DNA of 64,000 nucleotides from positions 5,735,958-5,799,957 of the forward strand of contig CM085480.1 of NCBI GenBank assembly GCA_041753875.1, given 5' to 3'. Both the position numbers and the translations under genes were made by a program. This DNA is from Acanthopagrus schlegelii. Taxonomy: Eukaryota. Numbering within the stretch: position 1 is the stretch's first letter; each line of letters starts with the position of its first letter. The notes beneath the pieces were generated by a model, which saw only the letters and a list, made by a program, of their open reading frames with translations, had not been told where the DNA came from and searched no databases. Of this stretch, positions 17,991 to 64,000 are shown piece by piece.

Positions 17991-18180
17991 GGCTGAGCCC
18001 AGCCACCCCCAACTCACTTCAGGTTCTTGCTATTTTGTTCATTTTCCACAGTTCATGGCCATAGGTGAAGGTTGTATTGTAGATGGACTAGTAAATCGGT
18101 AAATCTCTTCACCATGGTGGCCACGAGCAGCACCCACAGTACTGCTTACACCACAACAAACCTGAACCGGACCCCAAGAT

Positions 18181-36768: not shown

Positions 36769-36845
<77 letters not shown>

Positions 36846-39800: not shown

Positions 39801-40138
39801 TTACATCTAGGTAAATGATCTAGTAGATGTGTGACCACAAAAGACATTCTGACTCTTTTTTTTGTTTTGTTTTTCTCTCCTTTCTAGGGTGCCTCGCCTT
39901 TTGCAGAAATGGATTATGAATGTCCACCGAGTGAACCTTCACATGCAGAAGCCCACACCTCTCCAGTCCTTCGTCGTCCCCGTCCTATCATATGTTTGGG
40001 ACTCCCAACTCCTCCTCCTCCTCCTGACATTTATCGCTTTTCACCCTTAAGTCGTCGTCTTCCTCTTCCTCCTCGTCTTCCTGCTCCTCACACTTCTTCT
40101 TCTGCATTCTCATTCGGTTCTCCTCCTCCTCCTCCTCC

Positions 40139-40170
<32 letters not shown>

Positions 40171-40282
40171 TTCTTGGTGCTCCTCCTCCTCCTCATCCTC
40201 CCACTTCTTCCTCTGCATTCTCAATTGGTCCTCCTCCTCCTCCTCTTCCTCACACTTCTTCTGCATTCTCAATTGGTCCTCC

Positions 40283-40314
<32 letters not shown>

Positions 40315-43781: not shown

Positions 43782-44466
43782 GCAGACAGACAAAATGCAT
43801 AGCTGTATGTCTTTTTAGAGGAGGGAAGGTAAAATCTTTAAACTACAAATGTTTTCAAACACATTTGCACTCCTTTCTTTGCCTTATGTAAAGCATTTTG
43901 AACTGTCAGTGTGTTTACCTGCTCTTACATACAGTTTGCTTTCTGCAGTTAGCGGATTTCTTAAAGTTCACATGAAACGTGTAGTGCACTGCTATTGTAT
44001 TGTAAAAACAGCAGCAATGGGGGATCACGCCCCGAATAATGATTGAAGTTTATGTATTAGTTGATAGTGCCTAATGTGCATCACTGACTCTGGCCAGACA
44101 AGCAGCTCCAGGTGAACGCAGCTGACCCAGGACAGAACGTGTCCACAGATATGTCATTTCCAGGGATGTGAGAAAACTACTTTGTCTTCGTGGGAACTTC
44201 GTAAATTTCAGAAACAGTTTCCTTAATCGAGTTAAGGGGGAAAAAGATTCATTGATAATCTGTTATAAATGTTAGCTCACTTTTTAATTATCTTAATTCA
44301 TCTTCAAAGTTATCTTTCATACTCTGAGTGTTTTTAATAGCTTTATTAGCTTATCAAGGCCTTTTCTTTGTAAGGGTCTCTTTGTTGTTGTGTTTCCTTG
44401 TCTTTGTTTTGATCAACTTCATGTCATTGTAAATGAACATCTTCGCACAGTAATCTCGCAAGTATA

Positions 44467-44472: not shown

Positions 44473-46837
44473 GTTTGAATGAATAAATTAATGAATGTAT
44501 GCATGTCTGTGACAAAGCCTTCAGGCAGGGACACTGTAACTATGATCATGATAGGTAACAGCGCATCTTCACAAATTAGACCACAACTGAAAATGATCCA
44601 TTAGCCTCCAGAAGGCTAAAGAAGTCTGTGTTGTGTGTCATTACTACTGTTCAAGACTTTCGGTAGTATTACCAAATAAGGTCAGAGTAATGGAGGAATC
44701 GGATGATTGACCTTAGGCATGTATGTGTGTCATCAGATTACTGATTAGTCATCTCAACGCCGTTTATTGAGTGCAAATAAACCAAAAACACTCCAATTAA
44801 TGGCCAACTGCTCTGTCTCCTGAGCCATAGCTGCACCAAGATATACAAGCACCTGCAATGGTCTGTTATCACCGAATTTTATGATTTCTGTTGTGCTGCC
44901 CTGGAATGGCCTGCACACACATTCCTTCAACCATTCTAGAGAAAACCAGGATGAATACCTGGAAAATGTTGTGCGAGGCAAGTGTGCTTTGACAAGATTT
45001 AGCTCAAGGAACTGAAACAAATGGCTGTTAAAATATGAGGCTGCTACACCACTTCTCTACACCACCACTTTTTTTTACAGCTGAAGAAATGTGATAATGA
45101 GCCTTATCAGAAGTATTTGGCACTTTGACTCTTCACTTAGTCAACAGCAGCAAAATGACCACATCACAAACTCATTAGAAGTCAGTGAATCTGTAAGGAA
45201 TCTCTAAACATCATGGTTCCTCATCTTGTTTGTCTGTGGAAGAAATCTTAAAGAGGTCATATTATGGACATGTTTGGGTTCATACTTTATTTAGGGGTCC
45301 TAGTAGAATAGGTTTACGTATTTAAAAAAAAGAAGAAAAAAAACATTATTGTGTGGTGAATTTCTGCAGCATCCTTTACACAGGATATAGCCAAAATAAA
45401 AGCAGAGTTGGGCGGGTTGTGCCCCACAAGGTTTGGTGATCTAAAATATCTCCACTACAGCAGTAGCAAGTGTATGTCTGCTGACTGACTGGAGTGTATA
45501 TATTTTGTGATAAATACATACAAATATATATTTATATAACACCTGTTACACAGTACAGCACGTACGTTACAGAGGTAAAGGCTCGACTCCAAACCAGGTG
45601 TTTCAGGCAGTGCAGGAGCAGTGTTTTCTGTGCTGCATAACACAATAATGGAAAGGCAAAACCCAAAAAGCGTGATATGACCTCCTTGAAAGATACAGCT
45701 TATTGAATGATGAAATAAAAATTAAAAAAAGAAAGATGTTTTTTTCCTCGCTAACAGTTTTCCTATGGAACACTGTCTGACTGAGTGACAAATGGAGTGC
45801 TGAGGCGGTTTTCCTCTGCTTCGAGTCTTTAATAGTATTTAACTCTCACTACTGTGAAGTGAAGCCAGTCAGTCAAACCATTGCGGTAACAGCCATGAAA
45901 AAAAATGTTTAAATCTTAGATGTCATAAAATAGTTCCTAAATAAATTGTTTTTAAATGCATTCGTTCCTGTAGTAGTCTATTCTTCATAGCATATACAGT
46001 CTAAATGTCTATTTTTATTCCAGTGTCATTAGGAGGATGACTTTGTAGCAGGAACATTGGTCAGTTCCAGGCATTTATGTGCTCAGCGGTATATAGTATA
46101 GTATATTGTTGTATTTGTCGTCATCGGCTTCAGCATCATTCAGCAGGCAAATTGTTCTGGAAATTAAACATGCAAATAAAAACAGAAACAGTTGACAGGA
46201 CATTACACACAAAGTTAAGAAATAATTAAAGCGAACGTCCGCTGTGACAATTTCTAGAATGTGAGCCACTAGTTTAAAGAAAACGATATAATAGAAGGTG
46301 TACCAAATTAAAATAAAAGCAGTTTATGGTTTTTGTTTTCGAACTTTAGCTGCTATATACATGGAATAAACATGCAAATGAATTTAACTCTCTTTTAAAT
46401 GAATGTGAGGCCACTACTTTGCAAGTTAAGAAATGAATAAAAAATGTAAAGCTCAAATGCGTCACATAAAAATGGGTTCTGGAGGTTCCCCACACATTCA
46501 TTCACTCCTGTGTTGAGGTAGTTTAAAGTCAGTGATCCAACATGAAATAGTCCATTAATTCCTTTTGAAATATATATGCAATGTAATGCAACCATTTCAA
46601 GGTTTTACAAAAGTGCCAATTGAAAAGGACCACAGACTTATTTGGACATGTTCATGTGCCATCACACAGATGTGGTGGTATTAAAGGTATTGAGCTGGTG
46701 GTGGATGTTTCCTGTGCAAACTATTTTCATCACCTCTAAAAACTGATGACTTCCTGAAAACCGTGAGAGACGTTGAATCCACCATCATCATATACATGCG
46801 CTGACCGTTTAGGAGAGAGCTGGTTACCTTTTGAGCG

Positions 46838-46907
46838 ATGGAGGAGATCTATGCAAATGTTGATTACAACAAGCCTGTCGACCCAACACCTTCAACAAAT
46901 CAGACAG
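46838..46907 (+). CDS. C-type lectin receptor exon 1 (cytoplasmic tail MEEIYANVDYNKPVDPTPSTNQT)
   Basis: The ATG leads to a strong donor acag|gtaaga. The acidic-YxxV motif resembles a hemITAM/ITIM. Only the frame joining to exon 2 gives a sensible type-II receptor. Confidence 0.55.
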
Positions 46908-47001
46908 GTAAGAATGCTCACTCACACACATGGGTTGTGCATATTGATGTTGTGTATTATCCTGTGTTGTGATCATGATATCATGTCCTCTCTGTGTTCA
47001 G

Positions 47002-47103
47002 GTCCCAGGAGCTCAGAGAGGAGGCTTCATGGAGCCGTGGTTCTCTGTCTGGGGCTGCTCAGTGTTGTCCTGCTGGTTGGACTCATCAGCCTCGGTGTCA
47101 CCT
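47002..47103 (+). CDS. C-type lectin receptor exon 2 (transmembrane segment)
   Basis: Translation GPRSSERRLHGAVVLCLGLLSVVLLVGLISLGVT, a basic stop-transfer followed by about 23 hydrophobic residues. Acceptor ttcag|gt, donor acct|gtgagt. Confidence 0.65.
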
Positions 47104-47512
47104 GTGAGTCTGTTTTTCATCAGTCAGTGTCGGGTGAACTTGTGAGAGATGCTCGTGTCTTTATGAATATGATTTTACAGCCATGGTAAATATATTCCAG
47201 CAGCTAACGCAGCAAAATGAAATATTTGAACATCTGTGGATGATGAAGAGCTGAACCATGTTTGAATTCAGGTGCAGGTTGCTCAGTATTTAGATATTTG
47301 CTGGGGAAACATCAGAGCATATTATTATAAAGACTGTACATCACTGTTTGGACTTCAAATTCATTTCAGCCCTCAGGTTGATATTTCATAGACTGCATGA
47401 GCAGAATGAACATCTTCCTCTGTCAGGACAAATTAGGATGATTTTGACTCAAATATAGAACCTTTAGTCAGTATTGGTATCAATGCATGAGTGAATCTTG
47501 ATTTAATTTCAG

Positions 47513-47680
47513 ACTGGGATTTAGCTGCAGAACACTCCACTGTCAAAGCCAACCTGACGGAGCGTCTCCAGGCCAGTAATGACAAGCTGTCCTCTGTGTC
47601 TGAAGAGAGAGACCTGCTGAATGCCAACCTCACTTCAGTGTCCAAAGAGCTGGACAGACTTCAGAGTTTGTCCAAACAGA
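47513..47680 (+). CDS. C-type lectin receptor exon 3 (coiled-coil neck)
   Basis: Translation WDLAAEHSTVKANLTERLQASNDKLSSVSEERDLLNANLTSVSKELDRLQSLSKQ, a heptad-like pattern typical of CLEC4/CD209 necks. Confidence 0.65.
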
Positions 47681-48319
47681 GTGAGTGCTCGCCTGCCTGT
47701 GTGTGTTCTGCACAGCTGTCTGTTAACATGAAGGACAGGAGCTGCCACGGCCTCATTTATAGAACACCTATATACAGAGACTGTGCTGATCAGACACTTG
47801 TATCCCACTCTCACTTCTGTCAGTTACATTTATGTACCCATGACTTTATTCATTCTTTCAATTCATTCAAACAGGAATATATTTAAGTTAAGAAACAACA
47901 GCGATGATTGACAGTTAGAAACACTGGCTGGAGTGGGACTTCTCCGTCCAGTCTGCACCCTGCTTAAAGTCCCCTCAAAGGTGATAGTTAATGTTTGTTT
48001 TTGAGAAAAACAGTTGCATGGGGTTCAAAGAGGTTGGATCAACTATTCAAAACATCTTAATGATTCAACAGTGTGCAAATCTTGGTATCAATATATTTTA
48101 TTCAAAACATTATTGTCATTTAAAAATATCGTTCTGTTTTTGATGATGTTATTTTGTTCCATTCTGGTTTTAATATATTGTCCATGATATAAGAAATATT
48201 AATTAGCACATCAGTTAAAAACATTTTCATCCAAAGAACATACATTCAATCCTCAACCTCCCAAACTGAACAACATGGACCTTGTCTGATCTTTAACGTC
48301 ACTTTGATGCTTTTTCCAG

Positions 48320-48462
48320 AGAGAACTTGTCCTGCAGGATGGCAGATGTTCAGTTGCACCTGCTATCTCTTCTCCACTAAGACTGATTCTTGGGAAAATG
48401 GCAGACAAGACTGCAGAGACAGAGGAGCAGAGCTGGTGACCATTGACACTGATGAAGAACAG
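48320..48462 (+). CDS. C-type lectin receptor exon 4 (CTLD part 1)
   Basis: Translation RTCPAGWQMFSCTCYLFSTKTDSWENGRQDCRDRGAELVTIDTDEEQ, the canonical CTLD opening (CPxGW...CYxFS...W..S...C...GA.LV.I.S.EEQ). Confidence 0.8.
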
Positions 48463-48559
48463 GTAGTGAGGAGTTTTTCCTTACAGAGCCTCGATAGATT
48501 GTAAAGTCCTCTGAGACAAATTTTTGACTTGTAAATAAAATAGACTTTGCATTCCTTCT

Positions 48560-49085
48560 TACCCACCTATATACTTCATGCGCACCTCAGTTTTTGCCCC
48601 CCAAAAAGTAAAGGAACAAATTACTGAGAGACAGAGAGATCAGTTGCCAGGGTCAGCAAGTAATCACTGTGACAGGACGGCTCCCACTCTGGTGTCACCG
48701 GAACAGAGGAGAAATTCTTTTTTAGATGTACAAAGGCTTCCTCAGCTTGATGGAGGTGAGCTGAGTCAGGGAGGCTCCCAACACGGCTGTAGTCAGAGAT
48801 GAAACATCGATAGAAGCTGGCAAAATTAAGGGTACAGTGAAGTTGCTTATGGTTGTCAGGAGTTGGCCAATCAGGCATTGCCTGCACTCTGCCTGCCCTC
48901 ACTCAATGACGAAACCCAGGAAACGCAGGGATGGAGAGTGAAAGAGACATTTTTCCATTTCACGTCAAATTTGTTCTCCAGGAGCCTTTGGAAAACCAAA
49001 CGGACATGCTGAATGTGCTCCCTCTTTCTCTGGGAGAAGATGAGAATATAATATAAATAAATTAACATAAACCGGTTCAGCACAT
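48560..49085 (-). mobile_element. Ty3/Gypsy LTR-retrotransposon pol fragment (RT to RNase H junction)
   Basis: Minus-strand ORFs read 'EHIQHVRLVFQRLLENKFDVKWKNVSFT' and 'WPTPDNHKQLHCTLNFASFYRCFISDYSRV...AEEAFVHLKKNFSSVPV'. These are classic Gypsy pol motifs with a frameshift between them. Confidence 0.6.
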
Positions 49086-49139
49086 TGTGGAGAACATTGT
49101 TGTTGTTTTTTTTTTGTTGTTTTTTCTTTTAATATTTAT

Positions 49140-51300
49140 GTTTACTGTTTTTCAGAATGAGACAAGAACACATGGACAAACAGATAATAGAAAAAAAGAA
49201 TAGAAAAAAGACCCTCCTCCCCCCCCACCCCAAAACTAACAAGTGAAACAAGAAACATGAAAATCAGCACAACATAATTAAGAGATAATAATGTGTCAAA
49301 CGTGTCTCTCTTGTGTTCATTATAAAGTCTCAGTCTCTCCGGGTGAAGTAAATTTAATGTGGGTGCAATGTCTGACCTCCATGCCTGGAGGATTAACTTC
49401 CTGCAATCACAGTTCCAAATAGGATAGCCCTTTCTCGTATTTATTGGCAAAAGACAAAGGGGTAGTTGCCCAAGAATGGCTACCGATGGATCAGGCTCCC
49501 AACATTTCCCATAAGCCATAGAGAAGCAATGAAAAATACTTTTCCAGTATGTAAGTATTTGTTGCAAATGGGTGAAACATCAGCAAAGAAATTGCAGTTT
49601 TTCTCTAGAATAATAGAATGTCTTGTCTTAAACTGTATAAGGCAATGCTTGACATTCACAGAGCAATCATGTATACTTTTTAAACATTCATCCCATACTT
49701 CACCTCACAGTTCTGTATTCAGTTCATCTGTCCATGCCTGTCTAAGACTCACTGTGTTCAATGGAGCATTGTTGTGTAAGATCTGGTAAAAGAATGAAGT
49801 AGCCTCTTTAGCTGCAGGGTCAAACTTGTTCATTGCCTCAAGGGTCTCATGCTCTATCACAATTTCAAAGTTGTGTAAATGCATCTTGATTCAGGAATGT
49901 CATATGAGGCAAAAATGTTGTTAATATATAAATCACCTATGTTGCAAATGCCTTTCCCCTTCCAGAGAGGGAAAACACTATCAGTCAGAACTGGTAAAAA
50001 AAAGAATGGTTTTCACATATTGGGTTGCCCAAGTAGGTTTTTGGAGACTCAATGTAATGTTTTATTTGCTTCCAGATTCTTATGGTGTTGCCAGTTACAA
50101 AACTGTTAACAAAGAATACCTTTTTAACAGCAGTGGCACTGTTAAGATGAGCAGATAATTAAGTATAAAACTATATTCATATCATAGAGCAGTTATTTTA
50201 TTAAGTACTTCTGTTTTAGGTTCAGTTTTCTTTGAATGATCATGATCATCAATTTTGGTTAGTCTTTCCTTAGATTTTTTTTTTCGCTGCTGCCTCATAC
50301 AATATTATATGGTCTCTAAGGACAGCCTTTATGGCCTCCCACAGAGTGGAATCATCCACATCGCCCATGTCATTGGTACTTAAATATAGTTCTATTTTAC
50401 CAGAAAGATAGGTACGAAATTCTTTAACTTTTAAAAATGTATTTTTCAAACACCAGTTATGTTCACCTCTCTTATGGTTCAAGTCAAGACTTAAGGAGAC
50501 AGGAGCATGATCTGATATTAGTATATTATAAGTGCAGTCAACAACTGACTGTTGCAACTTAGAATCCAACAAAAAGAAATCAATCCTAGAGTAGAATTTA
50601 TGTACTGTGGAAAAATAAGAAAAATCCTTTGTGGTAGGGTGGAGACGCCTCCAGATTTCCACCAAAAAATGAGTGTGCCAATATACATGTGTATATGTGT
50701 AAACATATATATATGTTTCTAAATATACTGGTCTGGGAGTGCTGTTGACCAAGAATAAGATCTCAAACGTAGTTAAAATTTCCACCAATGATTACATTTG
50801 AATCCGACAAATTCGGTAAAGTGTTGAAAAGGTTCTAAAAAAAAAAAGCGGGTTGCTGAAATTGGCCCCATATTAGGGGTGTAATGATTCATCTACTACA
50901 TCGAGGATTCGATTTATATTCCTACGATCCAACTACATTGATCTGTGCTCGGCAAGTTGGCCTTCCTTATTTGGGAGTGGATAAATGGTATATTTTTTCT
51001 TACAATAATTGCAAAGCCTCTTGATTTTGAACTGAAGTTCAACTGATAGACCTGTGAAGCCCATGAGGGACAAACTATTTTTGCTGCAGTTTTTTTAATG
51101 TCTATCTCCTGAAGAAAATACATGTCAAATTTAAGTGCCCGTTTTTGAAATGAATCAATTCATCTTTGGGTAATGGAAAAAGCGTTCTTGCTTTCTCAGA
51201 CTTAATCCACTCTAAAGTGACTGGTGGTATGTAGTGATGTTTAATCATAAATAAATCTAGAAATAAAACCCTAAGCCTATCAAACATCATATGTCCTTAA
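49140..51300 (-). mobile_element. L1-like LINE ORF2 remnant (endonuclease domain and start of the downstream region), degenerate
   Basis: The minus-strand ORFs read 'QKRALKFDMYFLQEIDIKK...GFAIIVRKNIPF' (endonuclease N-terminus) and 'FSTVHKFYSRIDFFLLD...ISDHAPVSLSL...NWCLKNTFLK...LWEAIKAVLRDHIILYEA' (endonuclease C-terminus). The reverse-transcriptase core is missing or unrecognisable. Confidence 0.6.
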
Positions 51301-52012
51301 AGGATTGATAACATAACTCCTTATCAACTTGACAGAACCCAAAGTTTTTCAATGAACTCTCTCCTGTTCATGCAGGGTTAGGGTGCATGCTTGGAAACCC
51401 TGTGCATTACATCAACCTTAAACTCTTAATAGGATGTACTAGGGCTTTCACTTTTTATTCTAAATTTGAATATTCGTTTCGAAAGTGGAGGGAAAAGTTT
51501 GTATTTGAATGTAAAGACCTGTCCGAAATCAAAATGTACGGTCTATTAGCGCAACTGACAGCTTGAAGTAATTCACCTTGTGATCCAGCAGAGGGCGCCA
51601 TTAATTTAGCTTGACCTCTTGCGCGCCCTGTTAACTCTAGACCTGTCAATTCAGCTAGTAGTATTATGTTATTTGCTATGAAAATGGAGGACACTAGCGA
51701 GCAAAGCCATCCTGTGCGGACAATCGCGACACCAAAGCATCTGAGATGTAATGTATGGAAGTATTTACTGTTCTACACCGTAGATGGAAAAGTAACTATC
51801 AAAGCAGCTGTCTTACTCCACAACAACAACAAATCTGCAGACTCACCTGCTAGCTTACAACCACATAAGCTAACATTAGCAGTGGAGTATACAACCTCGT
51901 CTGACAGACTACTACTCGGCACACTCGGCTTCACCGGGGGGTAATTTATTCGAATTCATTCGACTAAATTGTGTGTCATTTCAAATTCGTTCAAACTTCC
52001 ATCCATCCATCC

Positions 52013-55000
52013 ATCCATCCGCTTATCCAATACCGGGTCGCGGGGGCAGCTGTCTGAGCAGGGACACCCAGACTTCCCTCACCCCGGACACTTCTTCCAG
52101 CTCTTCTGGGGGGATCCCAAGGCGTTCCCAGGCCAGCTGGGCGACATAGTCGCTCCAGCGTGTCCTGGGTCTTCCCCGGGGTCTCCTCCCAGCGGGACAT
52201 GCCAGTAACACCTCCCGGGGGAGGCGTCCCGGGGGCATCCGAAACAGATGCCCGAGCCACCTCAACTGGCTCCTCTCGATGTGGAGGAGCAGCGGCTCTA
52301 CTCCGAGCTCCTCCCAGGTGACAGAGCTCCTCACCCTATCTCTAAGGGAGCGCCCTGCCACCCTGCGGAGGAAACTCATTTCAGCCGCTTGTATCCGGGA
52401 TCTTATTCTTTCGGTCATGACCCAAAGTTCATGACCATAGGTGAGGGTAGTAACGTAGGTTGACCGGTAAATCGAGAGCTTCGCCTTTCGACTCAGCTCT
52501 CTCTTCACCACGACAGACCGGTATAACGACCGCATTACTGCGGCCGCCGCACCAATCCGCCTGTCAATCTCACGCTCCAGCCTTCCCTCACTCGTGAGCA
52601 AGACCCCAAGATACTTAAACTCCTCCACCTGAGGCAGTAGCTCTCCCCCAACCCGGAGGGGACAAGCCACCTTTTTCCGGTCGAGAACCATGGCCTTGGA
52701 TTTGGAGGTGCTGATTGTCATCCCAGCCGCTTCACACTCGGCTGCAAACCGCCCCAGGACATGCTGGAGGTCCCAGCTCGAAGGAGCCAACAAGACCAAA
52801 TCATCCGCGAAAAGCAGAGATGAAATCCTGTGGCTCCCAAACCAGATCCCCTCCGGCCCGTGGCTGCGCCTAGAAATTCTGTCCATGAAAATAATGAACA
52901 GAACCGGTGACAAAGGGCAGCCCTGCCGGAGTCCAACATGCACCGGGAACAGGTCTGACTTACTGCCGGCAATGCGAACCAAGCTCCTGCTCCGCTCGTA
53001 CAGGGACCGTACGGCCCTTAACAGAGGGCCTCCGACCCCGTACTCCCGGACCACCTCCCACAGAATGCCACGAGGGAATGCCTTCTCCAAATCCACAAAA
53101 CACATGTGGACTGGTTGGGCAAACTCCCATGAACCCTCGAGCACCCTGCGGAGGGTATGGATGTTCCACGGCCCGGACGAAAACCGCATTGTTCCTCCTG
53201 GATCCGAGGTTCGACTATCGGCTGAATTCTCCTCTCCAGTACCCTGGAATAGACTTTCCCGGGGAGGCTGAGGAGTGTGATCCCCCGATAGTTGGAGCAC
53301 ACCCTCCGGTCCCCCTTTTTAAATAGGGGGACCACCACCCCGGTCTGCCAGTCCAGAGGCACTGTCCCCGACTGCCATGCAATGTTGCAGAGACGTGTCA
53401 ACCAAGACAGCCCTACAACATCCAGAGACTTGAGGTACTCAGGGCGGATCTCATCCACCCCCGGTGCTTTGCCACCGAGGAGCTTCCCGACTACCTCGGT
53501 GACTTTGGCTTGGGTGATGAATGAGTCAACCTCTGAGTCCCCAGCCTCTGCTTCCTCTATCGAAGACATGTCAGTGGGATTGAGGAGATCCTCGAAGTAT
53601 TCCTTCCACCACCCGACAATATCCCCAGTCGAGGTCAACAGCTCCCCACCTCCACTGTAAACAGTGTTGGTGGAGAACTGCTTCCCCCTCCTGAGGCGCC
53701 GGATGGTTTGCCAGAATTTCCTCGAGGCTGACCAATAGTCCTCCTCCATGGCCTCTCCGAACTTTTCCCAGACCCGAGTTTTTGCTTTCGCGACTGCCTG
53801 TGCTGCTGCTCGCCTGGCCTGCTGGTACCCGTCAGCTTCTTCAGGAGTCCCCCGGGTCAACCAGGCTCGGTAGGACTCCTTCTTCAGCTTGACAGCATCC
53901 CTTACTTCCGGAGTCCACCACCGGGTTCGGGGATTGCCGCCACGACAAGCACCGGAGACCCTACTGCCACAGCTCCAACAGCCGCGTCAACAATAGAGGT
54001 GGAGAACATGGTCCATTCGGACTCAATGTCCCCAGCCTCCCTTGGGATCAGGTCCAAGCTTTCCCGGAGGTGGGAGTTAAAGACCCCTTTGACAGAGGGT
54101 TCTGCCAGACGTTCCCAGCAGATCCTCACAATATGGGCCTGCCAGGTCTGTCCAGCTTCCTCCCCTGCCAACAGATCCGACTCACCACCAGGTGGTGATC
54201 AGTTGACAGCTCAGCCCCTCTCTTCACCCGAGTGTCCAAGACATACAGCCGGAGGCCAGATGACACGACCTCCGGCCTAGGGTGTCCTGGTGCCATGTGC
54301 ACACATGGACACCCTTATGCTTGAACATGGTGTTCGTTATGGACAAACTGTGACTAGCACAGAAGTCCAGTAACAAAACACCACTCTGGTTCAGATCGGG
54401 GAGGCCGTTCCTCCCAATCACACCCCTCCAGGTAACACTGTCGTTGCCCACGTGAGTGTTGAAGTCCCCCAGAAGAACGACGGAGTCCCCTGTTGGAGCA
54501 CTCTCCAGTACCCCTCCCAGGGACTCCAAGAAGGCCAGGTACTCTACACTGCTATTCGGCCCATAAGCCGAAACAACAGTGAGAGACCTATCCCCGACCC
54601 GAAGGCACAGGGAAACGACCCTCTCGTTCACTGGGGTAAACCCCAACACATGGCGGCTGAGCCGAGGAGCTATAAGCAAGCCCACACCAGCTCGCCGCCT
54701 CTCACCGCGGGCAACTCCAGAATAGAAGAGAGTCCAGCCTCTCTCAAGGAGTTCAGTTCCAGAGCCCAGACTGTGCATAGAGGAGAGCATGACTATCTCT
54801 AGTCCGTACCGCTCAACCTCGCACCAGCTCAGGCTCTTTCCCCCCCAGTGAGGTGACATTCCATGTCCCCATGGCTAGAGTCACCATCCGGGGATTGGGT
54901 CGCCGGGGCCCCCGCCCACGACCGCCACCCAAATCACACCGCACCCGCCCCTTCTGAACCCTCCTGCGAGTGGTGAGCCCACAGGAGGGTGGGCCCACGT

Positions 55001-55200
55001 CGCTCCTTCGGGCTGCGCCCGGCCGGGTCCCGTGGGCAAAGACCCGGCCACCAGGCGCTCGCCTGCGAGCCCCAACCCCAGGCCTGGCTCCAGGGTGGGG
55101 CCCCAGTAACGCCAATCCGGGCGACGTGCGCATCCTCGATCTTAGCTCTGTCATCAGGGGCTTTTGAACCGGTCTTAGTGTGACCTGTCACCTAGGACCT
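52013..55200 (-). mobile_element. Near-full-length non-LTR retrotransposon (APE endonuclease plus reverse transcriptase), disabled by at least two frameshifts; 3' end carries a (GGAT)n tail
   Basis: The minus-strand ORFs 54859-54224 (endonuclease motif '[15 protein letters not shown]...[10 protein letters not shown]'), 53860-53018 and 53300-52023 (reverse transcriptase with 'FADDLVLLA' and the C-terminal 'RPRGRPRTRWSDYV') overlap in different frames. The 3' terminus is 'ggataagcgg(atgg)n' on the element strand. The 5' end is not well defined. Confidence 0.8.
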
Positions 55201-57117
55201 GTTTGCCTTGGGTGATCCTACCAGGGGCATTAAGCCCTGGACAACATAGCTCCTAGGATCATTCGGGTGCTCAAACTCCTCCACCACGATAATCAAGACA
55301 AACTTGATTTTTTTTAAAAGTGACTCCGGTGTAATGACACACCAGTGTGTAAGCCACAAGCCAGCACCGCAGATCCAAAAGAGGCATGACTGTACATGAT
55401 AACGACGATATCTGTGTGTATTTTTCAACGTGTTTCCACTGGTGTCCTCCTGTCAATCTAAACATGTACCCACTGACTGTTTATAATCATATGGATGCTG
55501 TCATAATGTGTTGTGGTTGAGATCTTGACCCACCATGCATCCTGGAAGGTAACAAAGTTACGTTTTTCCCTCAAAATTTCATAATTACATAACTGCAACT
55601 GTAAACTGGACGTTGTCTGACTCTCACTCATGGGGAGGGAGGCTGTTTTCTGGGGGAAACTTCATTGAATTCTCAGTCAGGATTAACTACAACAACACAA
55701 TAGTGGAAGATGACAAAACACTTAGTGAGTTAAAGTTTTTTGCCAGGGACAGAGGCTGTTTTTCAGGCAAACATGTGATGAGGAGTCGGTAGGACAGACA
55801 GGGGACAGACATTTTGTCAAAGTCAATTTGAATACTGACGGCTGAAGTGATTTTGAAAAACCTGCTGAATATACAGGAAAATACTTGCCTGAAATGCATA
55901 AAACTACAACATTTTGGTACATGAAAAGTTTCTTTAGCTGAACAAAAAGCTGAATATTGGAAATAGGCCTCCAGAATTTTAGGCTCAAAAGTAACAGTGT
56001 GGTTAATGGGGGAGATGCCAGAGTGCTTGTCGCTCTGGGGCTTCATATCCAAAAGTTTAAGTCCTACATTTGAAATAACATCATCAGCTGAAAGCCGTCA
56101 AGATGTCCTGCATTTCTATGTGTATATTGTCTATGTGAAGTAAAGGATGTGGGATCTAAATCAATCCGAAGAGAATTTTATCTCCAGTTTCTGTAGCTGA
56201 TCTCCACTAGTACACACCTATTATAAAATCTGATGACTGTAGTTGCTGAAGTAGTAGCAGAATGAAATTCCCATAAGGATGAATGGGAGAAAATTTGCAG
56301 AAAAAGCTGAATATTTCATGCTTGCAGCATACACACTAATACGTGGACAGCCATGTTGTTTAGATGTCAATCACAGAATGTGATTTTGAATGTAAACATT
56401 TAGAATCAAAGGTAAAAGAAATGGAAATGTCCAAAAAGGCAATAAATCAAAGACAAATGGAACCTTCAATCATCAAAGCTGAGATTCCATGATGCATGTC
56501 AGCAAGGGTATAAAAGGGAAAGCTTCAGACTGTCCCATCATTTTCTACGTTCAATCGTCTCAACAGGTTACACTGCTGATGAAGAGGGAAAGCAAAGCGA
56601 ATAATCAACAGGCAGATCACTGACACACTGTCAGACAACAGGCTTACAATGCTCAGCTCCAAGTTGAGAAGATCAGTGTTTCACAGCATGAAATCAGCCA
56701 AAGATACCCAACTGACTTCATCACTGTCAGACAACAGGCCAACACTCTTCAACACAAGCTTGAAAAGGAAGTCAGGTCTCACGCAGACACAGTGTTGGTT
56801 GGCTCGCATGTGATCATCAACTTGAGGGTTGAGCTGGACACCCTTTGCCAGAAGATGGCAAAGAAGATCAGTGTCTGGCAGCAAGAGACCACAGGTGATG
56901 TGAGAGCTAGTCGTGAGGAGAAGTGCGAGGAAGAGCCAATGGAGTGCGAGGATGATCCAGTGGAGCTGCAGTAATCGCTCCCTGAAGTCCAACGATAACG
57001 CACTGGCTCCTGAACTCCCAGAGGAAGATCAAGTCCCTGAGGAGACTCTCCCAAAAACGTCAGAGTGACCCCTTCGATCTGGGTCGTGGGTTCTTCTGGG
57101 TCCTCCGGTTTCCACAA

Positions 57118-57305
57118 GAAAAATAATACAAATTGAAAATAAATTTGAAAATTCAATTTGAAAATAAATTTGGAAATGAATCTGGAAGTGAATTTGAACA
57201 TGAATTTGGAAATGAATCTGGCAATGAATCTGAAAATAAATCTGGAAATGAATTTGGAAATAAATCTGGAAATAAATCTGGAAATGAATTTGGAAATGAA
57301 TTAGA
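57118..57305. repeat. Minisatellite, about 16 copies of a 12-bp unit (aaatgaatttgg / aaataaatctgg)
   Basis: The run is directly visible: 'gaaaataaatttggaaatgaatctggaagtgaatttgaacatgaatttggaaatgaatctgg...'. Confidence 0.8.
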
Positions 57306-59531
57306 AAAATAACATTTTTAAATGAAATTGAAAATCAGATGTCTGCATTAATAGTTGTATTTTGCAGGATGTTGTATTTTTGTGTTTATAGAGGTGGCAG
57401 TTCATTTTATGCACATGGTCAACAGGTGTGTGGAATATCCTGATCAACAGGAACATTATTATATCACTAATGAAAACACATTGACGACATGTTAGAGCGA
57501 TGCTAGCAGCTCTCTGAAGCTGTACTTAACAGCCAACCAACACAAATAATTGAATGTGTGGCAAAAACTAGTCAGTGCAAAAACAACAACAATCTGAGAT
57601 GTTGCGTTTGTGTGTTATTGCTTGGGGTTTTAGTTAATAAGGTAATTTCAGTATTTGTGTTTACATTTTATTAAGTTATGCCACATATTTAAATACGTAG
57701 CCTGTACTAGCCTACTCAACCACAGTAGAATTGCAAAAATCAAGAAGAAATGACGAAGTATACAAGTCCAAAAACATCAGGAAGGCCTGACATTCGATTT
57801 CTGAAATGCTCTATGAAGTACGACGGTACAAAACAGTGTCACTCAGTGGAATCAAGGAGTAAGCGAGGTTGTGTGTCAGCTAGAGTTTATACATAGCAGT
57901 TGGAAAGATGAGCTATGACCATCGGAGCATCTCTCTGTGGTTGCAGAAGATGGTGGGGTGGCGTTTCGCGACTGTTGAGTATTAATTTCAGGAAACATGG
58001 TTACTGTTAATTCTGAAAGTAAATGAACAACGTCCCCATCTTTTACTCCCTGTCTCAACTAACTTATCACACTCGGTAGACAGTCAACAGTCTTCCACAT
58101 GTTACACAACAAAACACACTTTATTTATCTACTGCATCCAATAAACATTATCCAGTCAAACAATATCACAGTTTCTCGTTAATATTTTGATGCATTGTAA
58201 GAACCAAAATAACATGTTTTGGTGATAAGTGACCCAAAAAACATCATCACTTCGCGATGACTTATCACATTTCAAAATAATAATTTGGTATCTATCTTTA
58301 TACTTTATCGTAACAACGAATTATCTTCTAATAATGAGAAACTCTCAAAATGACTTAGTATTAACCAGTTCTTTATCTGAAAAAACATGATCTAATGTTA
58401 TTTAGAGACATGATGACTTACAGGATTTTTTTTCTCAAAGTTCCAGAAATGAGGTACCACCATTCATCTGTTACATGTTTTCAATGGGTGCAGTAACAGT
58501 AACCGAGCTAACACTGCCCAGTCCTTGAGCACTAGCTGCTTGGCTAACTGAGCTAATTTGTTAAGGGCAGCTACAGTTGGCAGCAGTAAGCAGGTACTCC
58601 GTTTATACGCTGCCCCCCATTTGTTTTTGAGCTTTACAGGTGGCCAATTCTTACATATTGCACCACTAAAATGTAATGAGCTTATTGCAGATATAACCTT
58701 ATATTGACTGATCTGTGTGTGTGGTAGCAGATAAGTTACAAGAAACTGCAGCATAGAAATGGAAGTTGACGGAAGTCCGCTGCATGCTTCCTTTAATAGC
58801 AGGGGTTTAACATCGGCGTTTGTTTGACTGAGGAGGTGAGAATATGGGCCACGAGTCTATAGTTAAGTAAATCTGTCAAGTGTCGCCACGTTTCTTCCGA
58901 TGCATATGTTGTACGTCACTGTTCACGCTCAACTTCATGCTTCATGTCATGTCACATGTTTATGCCTACGCCAGTGTCGACTTTTTGGGAAAGAAGGAAT
59001 ATTAAACCTCCCTTTTGGATAGACAGGGCGGCAGAGTGCAGCCTTTACCTTGCAGCAAATGTGCCATCTTTTCTATCTAAAAGAGGCTAGTAATTCCTCT
59101 CTCAACCAGTGGAAAATGCTGTGAACACCTGATTATGCACGAAAAAAAATACCTCCATATACCGTGAAACCTAACCCTATCCATTTTGAGAAATACCATG
59201 ATATACATTTCTCCAAACAGGGTAGACGAGACACCCCCTTTCACAAATAATCACTGAGAATAAAATAAAACTCATTAGTCCTCACCCAAACTAAACATGA
59301 GCATAGCTTATGAACTGGCAGTCTTTGTTAAACAATGTTCACTTACACCATCCTTTCATGTGGCAGCATTTATTACATAACGTGTCTGGAATATCAGTCC
59401 ATCCCCTGGCTTGCAGCAGCACTGACGGCTATGTCCCATCCCTCAACTTCAGAGCTCAGGAACTTCTCGGCTTCGGCCAAGTTAATGAATGTGCCGGTGT
59501 TGTTGACAATGACCACTAAGCGTATTGGGTT

Positions 59532-60230
59532 TCAGAATCCACACTGAATCGACTTGGCCCCGCACTTCTCCCTGATGGCTTGAAAAGCCTGACATTTCTT
59601 CATCATGGCCGAGGTGAAATCCAGAAAAAATGTACGCTGGGCGGCATTATATTGTAGAGGAGCTTTCTCTCTTGCAGGCTGTAGCACAAGCTCTGTCACC
59701 TGATAATAGTGTATCCTAGCGATGATGGCTCTTGCTTTGCTGTCTGTAGCCGGAGCCAGGCTCAGGTGGGCCCAGTCCATTTCTGTTGGAAAGTTGGAAT
59801 GCTCCTCTCCAAGCAGTTTAGGAAGCAGTTTAGATATAAACTCCGTTGGCCGGCCATTTTCTGTCTTCTCCTTAATCCCGACACTACGAATATTCTGCCT
59901 GTAGGAGTGGGCCTCAAGGTCATCTAGCTTATCTTGTTGCTGCTTGTATTGGGAAGCCAACGTGTCATATCGCCTCTCTAGCCCCTATAGTCACCTCTCA
60001 TGTTACTCGGTGGTGGCCTCAGTAGACGACACCTGGTCACTGAGTTTGGTTAGGGCTGCTTTAAAGTCCAAGATAACTCCATTGATGGTAGTAGGAGCCA
60101 GGGAACTAGCTACACTAGCTATAGCTTCACATACGTCTGTTAGCATGTCACAATGGTCGCCAAAGTTGTCCTGCCCAGGACATTTGTCTTGCTTCTTTCC
60201 TTTCTCTTTTTTATTCATCTCGACAAGGAT
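59532..60230 (-). mobile_element. L1-like ORF1 (Transposase_22-type) fragment
   Basis: The ORF reads 'IRSVGIKEKTENGRPTEFISKLLPKLLG...MDWAHLSLAP...ARAIIARIHYYQVTELVLQPARE...RTFFLDFTSAMMKKCQAFQAIREK', preceded by a coiled-coil ORF. This matches the L1 ORF1p RRM/CTD pattern. Confidence 0.55.
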
Positions 60231-60516
60231 GTTTTAGTTCACTTCTGGCACTTGAAATGATGATTTAATGTCTTATGCACGAGGCAACGGTGAAGTCGAG
60301 GTGGAACTCCCCTAACACACGTTACTCCATATAAAAACCAGACTGGAAGACCTGAAAGAAACAAAGTTATGTTTATTGCTCTAAATTACATAATTATACC
60401 CCACCCGCTTATCCATTCACATTTGTTCAGTTTGCCGGTGCTGTGCCACGGATACTACCTCCAGAGGCGTACACAGGAGAGTGCTGAGAATTAGAGGAGG
60501 TGGCAGTCGATCAGCT

Positions 60517-60547
<31 letters not shown>

Positions 60548-61080
60548 AGTCCGTGATGGGCCTGGTCTCTTTGCATCTGTGTGAATAGGGAGATGACATG
60601 TCCAGCTTGTCCACAGCATACGCAGTCGTCCACCGAATCTCTGCTGGTGTTCTGCTGGGGTGAGACACATCCTGCCAAGTTGCATAGACTGAGGGTGTAG
60701 ATGGAGATGGGCATGTGGTAGAGTTGGCTGGTGGCATATACAGTATTTTGGGCTTTTAGGCTGAGGGTTGGCAGGCACTAATCTAGTGTCCCTTTCCCTA
60801 CGTCTTTCTCTTAACATATTGTCTAGACGTATGGACATTGAAATGTGGACCTCCAGGGAGGTGGTCTCATTTAGACACTTGTTAGCAATCGCCTTTCTAA
60901 GACACGTAAACATTTATAATTCAAACATGGGTGATTCAATTAAACAATTATCTGTCTGACATTATCACCTTGCTTTTGTTTTTACTATGTTTTAGCTATG
61001 ATGATCAGGTTATTACAGTAATAATGTATATTATATCATAGAATGAATGGCTTTATCTTATCTACCTCTACCTTGAACAG

Positions 61081-61184
61081 AAGTTCATCTCTAAAACCAT
61101 CACGGAAGACAATTGGATTGGTTTGAATGACAGAGAAGAGGAGGGGACCTGGAAATGGACAGATGGAACTCCACTGACTGTGGG
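61081..61184 (+). CDS. C-type lectin receptor exon 5 (CTLD part 2); downstream CTLD exon(s) not found in the window
   Basis: Translation KFISKTITEDNWIGLNDREEEGTWKWTDGTPLTV with the canonical WIGL.D...EG.W.W.DG motif. Acceptor ttgaacag|aag, donor gg|gtaagg. Phase is continuous with exon 4. Confidence 0.75.
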
Positions 61185-61236
61185 GTAAGGCAAACAGTTC
61201 AACACTTGATTTGAAAATAGACACAAATACACCAAA

Positions 61237-62240
61237 CAGGCATAACATTATGACCACTGACAGGTGAAGTGAATAATACTGATTATCTCTTCAACATGGC
61301 ACCTGTTAGTCAGTGGGACACATTAGGCAGCAAGTGAACATGTTGTCTACAAAGTTGATGTGTTAGAAGCAGGAAAAATGGGCAGCATAAGGATTTGAGC
61401 GAGTTTGACAAGGGCTAAATTGTGATGGCTACACGACTGGGTCAGAGCATCTCCAAAGCTGCAGCTCTTGTGGGGTGTTCCCAGTCTGCAAAGGTTGGTA
61501 TCCATCAGTAGTGGTCCAAGGAAGGAACAGCGGTGAGCCAGCGACAGGGTCATGGGCGGCCAAGGCTCAATGAGGAAGTTAATGCTGCTTCCGATAGAAA
61601 AGTGTCAGAGTACACAGTGAAGCGCAGTTTGTTGCATATGAAGCTGCATAGCTGCAGACTGGTCAGCATGCCCATGCCGGCCCCTGTCCACCGCCAAAAG
61701 GGCCAACAATGTTACCTGTGGGACACATAGCACCAGGATGCACTATGGGAAGAAGGCAAGCAGGAGGCATTGTGATGCTTTGGGGAATGTTCTGCTGGGA
61801 AACCTTGGGTCCTGCCATTTAGTGGGTGACAAGTTCCACCTACCTAAGCATTGTTGCAGACCATGTACACCCTTTCATGGAAATGGTATTCCCTGATGGC
61901 TGTGGCAGGATAATGTGCCGTGCCACAGAGCAAAAATGGTTCAGGAATGGTTTGAGGAGCACTACAACAAGTTTGAGGTGTTGACTTGGCCTCCAAATTC
62001 AACAGATCTCAAATCTAATCAAGCATCTCTGGGAGGTGCTGGACAAACAAGTCAGATCCATGGAGGCCCTACCTCGCAACTTACAGGACTTAAAGGCTCT
62101 GCTGCTAACATCTTGGTGCTAGATATCACAGCACACCTTCAGGGGGTCTAGTGGAGTCCATGCCATGATGGGTCAGGGCTGTTTTGGCATCAAGGTGGAT
62201 CAAAACAATATTAGGCAGGTGGTCATAATGTGAAGCCTGA
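61237..62240 (+). mobile_element. Internally deleted Tc1/mariner (Tc1-like) DNA transposon with short terminal inverted repeats
   Basis: Plus-strand transposase fragments read 'GRPRLNEEVNAASDRKVSEYTVKRSLLHMKLHSCRLVSMPMPAPVHRQK' and 'QDNVPCHRAKMVQEWFEEHYNKFEVLTWPPNSTDLKSN'. The inverted termini are 'acattatgaccac' (61246) and 'gtggtcataatgt' (62233). It lies about 50 bp downstream of lectin exon 5. Confidence 0.65.
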
Positions 62241-64000
62241 TTAGTGTACAATGATTGTACATTACTAGAGTAATTTCTGTCTGATGGTTTGAATAATTGT
62301 TATCAGAATCAGACTGACTCGCTGTAAGTATGTGATTTGTCAAGTACAAGTACAAAAAGCAATTTGTATGAAAACCTGGCCTGCAGGAGCAGAAAAGGTC
62401 CAGGTCAGCTATATGCTGTAGAATGTTGAAGATGACTATCAGCAGGAACAAAATGTAAAGAGTGTCAGATTGAAAGTAGTGGGTAAGAAGTAAATAATGT
62501 TTTTAATAATGCAAGGCTGCTCCACTGATCCTTGCTCTTCCCAGTCCAACTGTCTGCAGTTAGAATCCACTGTTGCCAGCATCTCAGTAAGGAAAGTTGC
62601 TATTGGCTGGCTCGTTAAAAGTCACTAAATGACGGTGTCGCCCAATTTGCATAAATGGCCATGTGCATTTAATTGAAATGTGCTGTTGGAGAGAGGAATA
62701 ATGTCATGGGGGTGACAAAAAGTGAGTAAAAAAACACCTGTATTATGTTTAGCACTACAAACAAACTTACTAAACTTACTAGATTGACCGTATTTTAGTT
62801 GTCAGCTCAAACTCTTCAATAGGTGTGCATGGGGCACTTTTACACCAGCATCAAAACCGTTATTTTTAAAGCACTAGGAAGGCTCGACACAACATGAAAC
62901 TTTGCTCGTAGTATCACCAGGGGTGAGAACGTTGTTTGTGTACACAGAGTTTACTAAAAATTAAGTTTTTGTATAATTCACATCAGCAGTAGTGTCTTCC
63001 TCTAGTCGTCGTCATGGCAGCCCAGAAGCGTCGATCCCCGAGTGCAACCTAACAGGAAGGAGAGTAAAGTTGGACCGCTCCTAAAGCTTAGTTCCATATA
63101 AATGCCCGGATAATTTGTTGTTTTGTTGTTAGCAAAAAAACAATATTAACCTTCAAGTTGAAAAAGGAGCCTCATATAAGAAACAATACTGAAGTCAAAA
63201 GCCAGAAAAGTCACGTGACATCTTGTGTGGCTATTTTTTGCTGTGCAAATCAGTCAAATGGCCTAGGAGGAGTTGGAGAAAGTAAGTTTATCATTTTTTC
63301 ACAGAGCCTTAGTGGCTCATGGGGAAGTAGTCACATCGGGTTCATGTCATTCAGACAGACCAGTGTGGAGATATGCAACACTTTGTGTTTTGAGCAAAAT
63401 GTACAGGAAGTTGTTGTTTAATAACTTGAGTATTGTATAATAATATCAAAATTCTTTTAATAGCTTTTTGTCAGCAGCGTCAACAGATCATGTGTGCAAA
63501 GTTTGGTGCAAATCAGTGAAATCGCCTGGGAGGAGTCAAAAAATTTAGGTTTGCGAAATTTTGCGACTTTGCGGGGATAAAAAAGGTAGGCGGAAACGGG
63601 CGTGGCCTATATGACAGTTGTGACATTTATTCAAAATTTAGTAAGTTTTGAGGCATGTTCAGGCAGTGAAAAATGCGATCATTTGGGACGAAAAAGTTGT
63701 CATTTGAAAAAACTAGCAGGTCGAGTCCTGCTCGGGCCCTTAGCTTAGGTTGCATTTTGGAGAGCGTTTCACTTTAAAGTCAGGTACTCGGGCTAGTTGC
63801 GTTGCATCATGCAAATCTGCAATCAAAGTTGTTCCAAATGTGGCAGCTGGTTTTCTACTGCAGCATATCTAGACCTAACTGAGTAAAGTGAAAGAGAAAC
63901 TAATGGTAGAACAGTGCTGGCACCAGCAGAGCCAGTTGAGAAAAGAGTGAAAATATATTTTCCATTAAGAAAAGCCTTCAGTGTTCTTTCTGGCTCTTTG

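Follow-up and report, generated by a model that had tools for sequence, protein, structure and literature searches.

The locus raises two questions: whether a lectin receptor gene whose CTLD is split by a very large intron and cut short before its last exon is an intact gene, and what its tyrosine-bearing cytoplasmic tail would do. The window, that is, the whole 64,000-nucleotide stretch of Acanthopagrus schlegelii DNA analysed here, contains five exons at 46838-61184, with AG directly before and GT directly after the exon at every internal border and with the phase unbroken across the joins. Joined, exons 1-5 make 587 nt, a stop-free frame of 195 aa from the start ATG at 46838, and encode in order a tail, a signal-anchor transmembrane segment, a heptad neck and about 60% of the CTLD. 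The parts of the gene are listed below, with matches to the locus of the sister species A. latus (L001, LR884468.1 4.98-5.01 Mb).

46838-46907, plus strand: exon 1, start codon and cytoplasmic tail MEEIYANVDYNKPVDPTPSTNQT(G), phase 1 at its end; 97% identity to A. latus L001 10001-10070
47002-47103, plus strand: exon 2, basic juxtamembrane RSSERRLHG, then the signal-anchor transmembrane segment VVLCLGLLSVVLLVGLISL
47513-47680, plus strand: exon 3, neck unit of 56 aa with a heptad Leu/Val pattern and two NLT sequons
48320-48462, plus strand: exon 4, first CTLD exon, KRTCPAGWQMFSCTCYLF...ELVTIDTDEEQ, phase 0 at its end
48463-61080, plus strand: intron 4, 12,618 bp, between exons 4 and 5 inside the CTLD
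61081-61184, plus strand: exon 5, second CTLD exon, KFISKTITEDNWIGLNDREEEGTWKWTDGTPLTV-G, phase 2 at its end; one mismatch against L001 21229-21332
61185-64000, plus strand: intron 5, ending at the window edge, with exon 6 expected about 0.5 kb past base 64000

The original prediction of a type-II, single-CTLD C-type lectin receptor gene is borne out by the transmembrane, neck and CTLD layout, by Pfam and by homologues. The sequence marks on which it relied were all found (MEEIYANVDY at the start, CPAGW at 48328-48366, WIGLND at 61114-61131 and GTWKWTDG in exon 5), and the continuous phase claimed for exons 1-5 was confirmed by the GT-AG borders and the open joined frame. Pfam Lectin_C (PF00059) was hit at E=1.4e-14 (55.2 bits against a cut-off of 22.6) over profile positions 2-64 of 107, the coverage being partial because the last CTLD exon falls outside the window. 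The CTLD framework within the window consists of WIGL (61114-61131) with C117, C128 and C145, and the extra N-terminal Cys pair (CPAGW...C) makes it a long-form CTLD. The transmembrane segment reaches a Kyte-Doolittle maximum of 2.95 at residues 36-54 and has a basic, Arg-rich flank on its N-terminal side only. In the neck, hydrophobic residues occupy 10 of 17 a/d positions in heptad register 4, and the exon-3 unit is duplicated in paralogue isoforms (P0001 and P0002). The AF2 model of the orthologue has a disordered tail, a single helix at 31-112 that includes the transmembrane segment, and a CTLD with pLDDT of about 90; the neck is predicted to be helical and probably oligomerising. With a cytoplasmic tail, one signal-anchor segment, a neck and a single C-terminal long-form CTLD, the layout is that of group II, as are the best PDB neighbours, the nearest solved structures being the DC-SIGNR CRD with neck, DC-SIGN, Mincle and SRCL. 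A protein comparison returned 360 homologues, of which the best, matching the whole query (100%) at 97% identity, is A. latus CD209 antigen-like protein C, and no identical protein was present in a collection of 15 billion. We are therefore nearly certain that the gene has six exons, of which the region holds exons 1-5, and that it encodes a C-type lectin receptor that is type II, single-pass and group II (DC-SIGN/CLEC4/ASGR-like). Within the DC-SIGN subgroup, which is expanded in teleosts, it is an unremarkable gene, already annotated in A. latus.

The comparison with A. latus also explains where the gene ends. Collinearity with A. latus covers window 37058-64000 (L001 1-23499) at 92-98% nucleotide identity, and the L001 annotation runs PARP4, lectin gene, paralogue. 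The gene and that of A. latus (P0003) are positional orthologues: directly downstream of PARP4, it is the first of a tandem series of paralogues, and the two have the same neighbours, the same exon borders and 97% amino acid identity over exons 1-5. Window 46466-47891 also matches the next A. latus paralogue at 95%. As predicted, the final CTLD exon is outside the window: no EPN/WND exon was detected there by tblastn with four full-length relatives (E<=10) or by a six-frame motif scan. Of the two fates suggested for it, a position beyond 64000 is favoured over loss, since collinearity continues to the last base of the window (63424-64000 corresponds to L001 22895-23499) and places exon 6 about 0.5 kb further on. 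The absent exon is thus most likely a window-edge effect rather than gene loss. The third CTLD exon is visible only in the orthologous loci of A. latus (L001) and Sparus aurata (L002); in the former it lies at L001 23973-24129, with the acceptor cag followed by G TAC TGG ... GAG CCT AAT and with EPN, WND and a stop. Judging from this orthologue, exon 6 would supply EPN...E-E-D-C...WND and the last two cysteines, and the CRD is predicted to be Ca2+-dependent and of mannose/fucose/GlcNAc type. EPN and WND occur in both orthologues (A. latus P0003, S. aurata P0005), while the paralogues are mostly QPD (78 QPD vs 14 EPN, n=120); for this particular gene, intactness and the EPN state are inferred from its relatives.

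A CTLD split by an intron of about 12.6 kb with recognisable LINE remains was confirmed, and several mobile-element remains can be read in introns 4 and 5.

50273-51159, minus strand: LINE endonuclease-domain remains, two stop-to-stop ORFs matching PF03372/PF14529 proteins at 65-78% identity; common to A. latus
51999-55298, minus strand: 3.3-kb non-LTR retrotransposon (LINE), EN and RT, frame-shifted, G+C 0.52-0.58, (CCAT)n tail at its left end
57113-57325, unstranded: 12-bp minisatellite in intron 4
59535-59984, minus strand: L1 ORF1p-like ORF remnant in intron 4, 75% identity over 150 aa to D. labrax 'Transposase element L1Md-A101...'; common to A. latus
61228-62248, plus strand: degenerate Tc1/mariner-type element in intron 5, 30-nt terminal inverted repeats at 61228-61257 and 62219-62248

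Intron 4 measures about 3 kb in S. aurata, 9.6 kb in A. latus and 12.6 kb here, and alignment with the 3.0-kb S. aurata intron is confined to the two ends of the intron here, 48463-49102 and 60587-61080. A. latus has the same L1-like remnants, and the endonuclease remains belong to a collinear block (window 49888-51998, L001 12594-14655). The 3.3-kb LINE (RVT_1 E=2e-19, Exo_endo_phos weak) is flanked by a 7-bp target-site duplication, CAAACTT, at 51992-51998 and 55299-55305; it has no L001 counterpart, and the empty site can be read directly in A. latus. The Tc1/mariner-type element gave weak matches, both under the Pfam cut-offs (HTH_Tnp_Tc3_2 E=0.004, DDE_3 E=1e-4). The large intron results from LINE accumulation in the Acanthopagrus lineage, the last step being the 3.3-kb LINE, and exons and splice sites were left untouched. 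The earlier description of the intron as filled with transposable elements is fair, if on the generous side: about 5 kb has demonstrable coding remains of such elements; the remainder is lineage-specific and of unproven origin.

Could the gene nevertheless be dead, its last CTLD exon lost or its function destroyed by the element load of introns 4 and 5? The window shows no exon 6, an identical protein is missing from the collection, the 3.3-kb LINE is lineage-specific and all five of the exon differences from A. latus are non-synonymous. However, the five exons are open with intact splice sites, the insertions are intronic with element ORFs antisense to the gene except at the exon-5 boundary, and collinearity leads towards an exon 6 just past the window. 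Exon divergence from A. latus is also low: 5/587 nt differ (0.85%), while the adjoining non-coding blocks diverge by 2-8%, mostly 3-5%. A pseudogene or truncated gene is therefore improbable. The five non-synonymous differences would fit relaxed or diversifying selection, and at three of the five differing sites (6, 8 and 57) the window retains the state of the listed sparid homologues. In the tail, the window has the family consensus YANV and A. latus YENG, so annotation as a coding gene is compatible with loss of the motif's +3. The other doubt is that exons 1-4 and exon 5 stem from two gene copies 12.6 kb apart. The family is tandemly duplicated and, as noted, part of the region also matches the neighbouring paralogue, but tblastn and six-frame reading found one copy only of each exon type across the whole window, the phases match, and in both annotated relatives, A. 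latus and S. aurata, the gene model splices these same exons together over introns of 9.6 and 3.0 kb. Such a chimera is hardly credible.

The tail itself was compared with 108 homologues, and MEEIYANV proved conserved family-wide. Relative to Y5, Ile is at -1 in 99, an acidic residue at -2 in 99 and at -3 in 106 (Glu in 87 at each), and V/I/M at +3 in 93; Asn at +2 (103/108) is the best-conserved feature after the Tyr. M1, E2, I4, Y5 and N7 are near-invariant in the family alignment (A1), and more distant representatives also have the motif. At the sequence level it matches both the YxxΦ sorting signal (YANV; L/I/V/M/F at +3 in 93/108) and the pYxNx consensus of the Grb2-SH2 or ITT-like type (N7). 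The ITAM pattern of two YxxL/I 6-12 residues apart was not found, the second Tyr lying at +5 (YNKP) with no Leu/Ile at its own +3. We infer that M-E-E-I-Y-x-N-V is a family-wide phosphotyrosine motif of YxNΦ type. Its acidic-acidic-Ile context would suit Src-family kinases; pY5 would then drive ligand-induced internalisation through YxxΦ, as reported for Y5 'YENF' of mammalian CLEC10A/MGL, and could also dock a Grb2-family SH2 adaptor through pYxNx, as in ITT-like motifs. In CLEC10A, with YENF at Y5, phosphorylation is required for internalisation and signalling, and ASGR1 has YQDL (PMC7404283). The pYxNx sequence is the Grb2 SH2 consensus, and the pYVNY of DNAM-1 recruits Grb2 after Src-family phosphorylation, N+2 being needed and +3 not (PMC4647266). 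We give this combined mechanism a chance slightly below even, and the conserved Asn could serve something other than an SH2 domain.

The original prediction had likened EEIYANV to a hemITAM or an ITIM-like motif, and neither assignment is supported in that form, as a residue that defines each class is lacking. An ITIM ([I/V/L/S]-x-Y-x-x-[I/V/L]), recruiting SHP-1, SHP-2 or SHIP to an inhibitory receptor, permits the Val at +3, but the tail has Glu at -2, and both positions agree in only 1/108 homologues, which makes this reading very improbable. An activating myeloid receptor with a hemITAM, in which Syk would bind to a single acidic-preceded Tyr in the YxxL manner of CLEC-2, Dectin-1 and CLEC9A, is unlikely, though it has more in its favour: acidic residues lie at -2 and -3, the Tyr is single and membrane-distal, and the positionally similar YENF of CLEC10A already carries the hemITAM label, along with a link to a Src/Syk pathway (PMC7404283). 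Against it, Leu at +3 occurs in 0/108 and Ile in 11/108, and the acidic cluster is E2 and E3 followed by I4 rather than a DED/EEE triad directly before Gly/Ile-Tyr (at least two acidic residues in -4..-1 in 97/108). The near-invariant Asn at +2, which ITIM and hemITAM leave unexplained, is accounted for by YxNx and by the YENF of CLEC10A. A purely endocytic receptor, with Y5-x-x-Φ as an AP-2 μ2 sorting signal like ASGR1 YQDL and no phosphotyrosine signalling, is a real though lesser possibility: YxxΦ is widespread among the homologues, the Tyr is at residue 5 as in ASGR1 and CLEC10A (PMC7404283), and source records name homologues 'hepatic lectin-like' or 'asialoglycoprotein receptor 2-like'. 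Yet AP-2 binding needs neither the Asn at +2, the Ile at -1 nor the acidic residues, positions conserved more than +3, and the phosphorylation of Y5 reported as required in CLEC10A argues against it.

Known receptors resemble this gene in part. Human CLEC10A (MGL/CD301) and ASGR1 share the type-II topology, the predicted helical neck, the single C-terminal CTLD, which here too is expected to span three exons, and the Tyr at residue 5, in CLEC10A as Y-x-N-Φ serving internalisation and signalling, in ASGR1 as YxxΦ serving internalisation. In contrast to the EPN of this gene's orthologue, their CRDs are of the QPD (Gal/GalNAc) type, and their CRD similarity (72-75 bits) is below that of Mincle or DC-SIGNR (90-101 bits), with no one-to-one orthology. 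DC-SIGN/DC-SIGNR (CD209/CLEC4M) and Mincle (CLEC4E) have the nearest solved CRDs in both sequence and fold (33-40% identity, TM about 0.8 on the target), an EPN-type site, here in the orthologue, and a modular neck. DC-SIGN tails carry di-leucine and tri-acidic motifs. FcRγ/DAP12-coupled receptors have a positively charged residue in or at the transmembrane segment for adaptor pairing; in Mincle, whose tail is short, a charged TM-proximal residue provides the coupling to FcRγ, whereas the core here, VVLCLGLLSVVLLVGLISLGV, is uncharged, without the Arg or Lys of Mincle/Dectin-2-type pairing. The fish genes group in an expanded clade of their own (Zelensky & Gready 2004, PMC514892). The hemITAM receptors CLEC-2, Dectin-1 and CLEC9A likewise combine a type-II CTLD with a single N-terminal Tyr after acidic residues, but they fall in group V (NK-complex) and their CTLDs are non-Ca2+; instead of their obligatory Leu at +3, the fish family conserves Asn at +2. 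The CLEC9A tail reads EEEIYTSL. In ITT and ITT-like motifs (DNAM-1 pYVNY; YxNM of mIgG, CD28 and NKG2D-DAP10), a Tyr with obligatory Asn at +2 is phosphorylated by Src-family kinases and docks Grb2; many fish paralogues read YVNV. Those motifs sit in C-terminal tails of type-I Ig-superfamily or adaptor proteins, so the likeness is one of sequence, and no lectin receptor is known to have been assigned to the class.

As a whole, we consider it likely that gene, orthology, downstream exon 6, intron history and YxNΦ tail are correctly explained here. More tentatively, and with the odds rather against it, the near-invariant tail M-[ED]-[ED]-I-Y-x-N-[VI] may serve the expanded DC-SIGN-like lectin receptors throughout the teleosts as a signalling module, in which a Src-family kinase would act on Y5 and pYxN would recruit a Grb2-family adaptor. 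A literature search found no paper mentioning the fish MEEIYANV tail motif. If true, these receptors would use an ITT-like mode as yet undescribed among C-type lectin receptors, and the Y5 'YENF' of mammalian CLEC10A may derive from it. On this view, an annotated isoform that retains intron 1 and starts at 46851 would lack the motif and be a non-signalling form of the receptor.

The lectin gene is read here from five exons on the forward strand, the borders of which were fixed by script.

Exons of the lectin gene in the window
46838-46907, + strand, exon 1, phase 1
47002-47103, + strand, exon 2, phase 1
47513-47680, + strand, exon 3, phase 1
48320-48462, + strand, exon 4, phase 0
61081-61184, + strand, exon 5, phase 2

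Every internal border has the form AG-exon-GT, and the joined exons (587 nt) are translated into 195 amino acids without a stop: MEEIYANVDYNKPVDPTPSTNQTGPRSSERRLHGAVVLCLGLLSVVLLVGLISLGVTYWDLAAEHSTVKANLTERLQASNDKLSSVSEERDLLNANLTSVSKELDRLQSLSKQKRTCPAGWQMFSCTCYLFSTKTDSWENGRQDCRDRGAELVTIDTDEEQKFISKTITEDNWIGLNDREEEGTWKWTDGTPLTV. [quoted passage not shown] The original prediction of five exons in continuous phase, ending in a partial CTLD, was thus right. No further CTLD exon, and no exon with EPN or WND, was detected in the 64 kb by a six-frame motif scan and by tblastn with four full-length relatives (E<=10), and the same searches ruled out that the window has another CTLD gene or extra copies of these exons.

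At the orthologous locus of Acanthopagrus latus (L001), 21332 is the last base of exon 5, and exon 6 spans 23973-24129, reading cag/G TAC TGG AGA AAA GAT GAG CCT AAT ... TGG AAT GAT ... TGA. The final collinear block pairs window 63424-64000 with L001 22895-23499, which together with the position of exon 6 in A. latus would place the exon some 0.5 kb after the window ends. Of the two fates proposed earlier for the last CTLD exon, beyond 64000 or lost, collinearity supports the former, and its absence is most likely an effect of the window edge and not of decay. EPN and WND are present in the A. latus and Sparus aurata orthologues, from which EPN would be expected in the window gene, while the paralogues have mostly QPD (78 QPD versus 14 EPN among 120). 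Open exons, intact splice sites and low exon divergence argue for an intact gene: the exons differ from A. latus by 0.85% (5/587), against mostly 3-5% in the adjoining non-coding DNA. The five differences (sites 46854, 46860, 47100, 48343 and 61081) are all non-synonymous (A6E, V8G, T57S, Q122K and K162E) with no synonymous change, a count too small for a dN/dS test. Two of them fall in the tail motif, which is YANV in the window and YENG in A. latus. Since the window has the state of the compared sparid homologues at sites 6, 8 and 57, the A. latus changes, YENG included, look derived.

The search with the partial protein gave 360 significant homologues, all from percomorph fishes, and their names in the source records (CD209 antigen-like, CLEC4E-like, CLEC10A-like or hepatic lectin-like) include the families with which comparison had been proposed. 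The best full-coverage match is the A. latus CD209 antigen-like protein C (P0003, 247 aa, 97% identity); a search with P0003 returned mostly multi-CTLD mannose-receptor-like proteins and added few N-termini. Window 37058-64000 is collinear with L001 at 92-98% nucleotide identity, and at both loci the gene has PARP4 on its upstream and a lectin paralogue on its downstream side, indicating that the window is the orthologous locus in a close relative of A. latus. The gene, itself unannotated here, is an ordinary orthologue of a gene that has been annotated in a known, expanded family. Mammals have no one-to-one orthologue of it; in sequence and fold the carbohydrate-recognition part of the orthologue is about equally near to Mincle, DC-SIGN/DC-SIGNR, SRCL, CLEC4F, CD23, langerin, CLEC10A and ASGR1.

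Directly upstream of the lectin gene, at approximately 34870-43800 (+), lies the 3' part of a gene resembling PARP4 (vault PARP), whose exons there, a large proline-rich one at 39909-41075 among them, were recognised from the A. latus annotation of the collinear locus. We also observed that window 46466-47891 (the promoter-proximal region and exons 1-3) is 95% identical to L001 27718-29132, the 5' part of the next A. latus paralogue, a similarity equal to that of the true orthologue. Such similarity points to a recent tandem duplication, or to gene conversion between genes of the cluster.

In the AF2 model of the orthologue, tail residues 1-29 are disordered and residues 31-112 form one long helix of membrane segment and neck, followed by a confident CTLD. 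The neck exon has an a/d heptad pattern and is doubled in P0001 and P0002, annotated isoforms of a paralogue, which points to a modular neck, as in DC-SIGN. In these products (304 and 306 aa) the 56-aa neck unit is present twice, so neck length varies by exon duplication or by readthrough between tandem copies, recalling the neck-repeat variation of DC-SIGN. The membrane segment has no charged residue, which makes FcRγ pairing of the Mincle type unlikely.

An out-of-frame ATG at 46851 in exon 1 was also observed to open a frame (46851-47103) that continues across a retained intron 1 (94 nt) to meet the normal frame in exon 2 (MQMLITTSLSTQHLQQIRQVRMLTHTHGLCILMLCIILCCDHDIMSSLCS followed by GPRSSERR...). 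Annotated isoforms of A. latus (P0013) and S. aurata (P0009-P0011) have the same ORF, which may represent a genuine alternative isoform or an artefact common to these annotations; the predicted product is a receptor without the MEEIY motif.

Intron 4 measures 3.0 kb in the orthologue of S. aurata (locus L002, exon 4 at 19138-19281 and exon 5 at 22286-22396), 9.6 kb in A. latus and 12,618 bp in the window. A large intron at this place is conserved and annotated in the relatives, and it points neither to a misassembly nor to two separate genes. Alignment to the Sparus intron is confined to the two ends of the window intron, 48463-49102 and 60587-61080, leaving about 11.5 kb as lineage-specific.

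Mobile elements and repeats in the introns
50273-51159, - strand, LINE endonuclease ORFs, common to A. latus
51999-55298, - strand, G+C-rich LINE of 3.3 kb (RVT_1 E=2e-19, weak EEP)
57113-57325, 12-bp minisatellite in intron 4
59535-59984, - strand, L1 ORF1p-like ORF, common to A. latus
Intron 5, degenerate Tc1-like element with 30-nt TIRs

The L1-like ORFs were identified by homology search with a chimeric query, the Pfam scan of stop-to-stop intron ORFs giving no match for them even at E<=5. For the G+C-rich block at 52-55 kb, the RVT_1 and EEP matches ruled out anything but a LINE. This element carries a (CCAT)n tail and is flanked by a 7-bp duplication of its target site, CAAACTT (filled site, window 51992-55305), and A. 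latus has the exact empty site at L001 ~14640-14660, so the insertion took place after the two species had split and is one that can be dated within the Acanthopagrus lineage. The LINE family is dispersed in this genome, with further 3'-end copies at 27129-27350 and 17765-18098 (91% and 67% identical to 51998-52474, respectively). The description of the intron as TE-filled thus holds in part, for about 5 kb of mobile-element coding remains. A 93-aa ORF at 48624-48902 (-), containing MPDWPTPDNHKQL and FASFYRCFI, resembles, by eye, the RT-RNase H junction of a retrovirus or gypsy element, with no Pfam or homology match; part of it aligns to Sparus and Pagrus introns, making it older than the other insertions. 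Intron 4 also has a run of ~23 C at 60527-60549, around which the collinear blocks with A. latus break (window 58461-60534 and 60561-61424).

The cytoplasmic tail was compared over the 108 homologues whose start has the tyrosine motif.

Residues at tail positions relative to the tyrosine (n=108)
-3: E 87, D 19
-2: E 87, D 12
-1: I 99
0: Y 108
+1: variable (A 55, V 29)
+2: N 103
+3: V 78, I 11, A 6, M 4, L 0
+4: acidic 94
+5: Y 61

M1, E2, I4, Y5 and N7 are nearly invariant in an alignment of 51 family sequences (A1), and the pattern is the same in more distant representatives. The tail had originally been likened to a hemITAM or an ITIM. A hemITAM is contradicted at +3, where leucine occurs in 0 of 108 homologues; an ITIM ([ILVS]xYxx[ILV]) is contradicted at -2 and fits a single homologue of the 108; and an ITAM has the wrong spacing. 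The more general proposal, that the tail serves signalling or endocytosis through a tyrosine, still holds. YxxΦ agrees with the motif, leaving N+2, I-1 and the acidic residues unexplained, and the tail sequence also fits the Grb2 SH2 consensus, pYxNx. E-E-I-Y is a favoured substrate context of Src-family kinases. The closest lectin precedent is CLEC10A/MGL, which has YENF with the tyrosine at the same position, residue 5, and is likewise Y-x-N-Φ. Phosphorylation of this Y5 has been reported to be necessary for internalisation and Src/Syk-ERK-CREB signalling, and ASGR1 has YQDL at the same place (PMC7404283, PMC4709716). The 'ITT-like' pYVNY of DNAM-1 is a substrate of Src-family kinases and a binding site for Grb2, and the Grb2 binding needs N+2 and not +3 (PMC4647266). 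From the tallies and these precedents, the best reading of the tail is a CLEC10A-like YxNΦ with a dual role, in which the motif would serve internalisation as in CLEC10A and may couple the receptor to a Grb2-type adaptor. Searches of the accessible literature, by the motif string and by CD209 tail motifs of fish, turned up no mention of the fish motif.

The gene itself adds one to the DC-SIGN-like lectins that fish have in a tandemly expanded cluster, and little is at stake in it; the family-wide YxN motif is the only mildly novel thread. To annotate these fish receptors as hemITAM or ITIM carriers is a mislabel, which the family-wide tallies correct.
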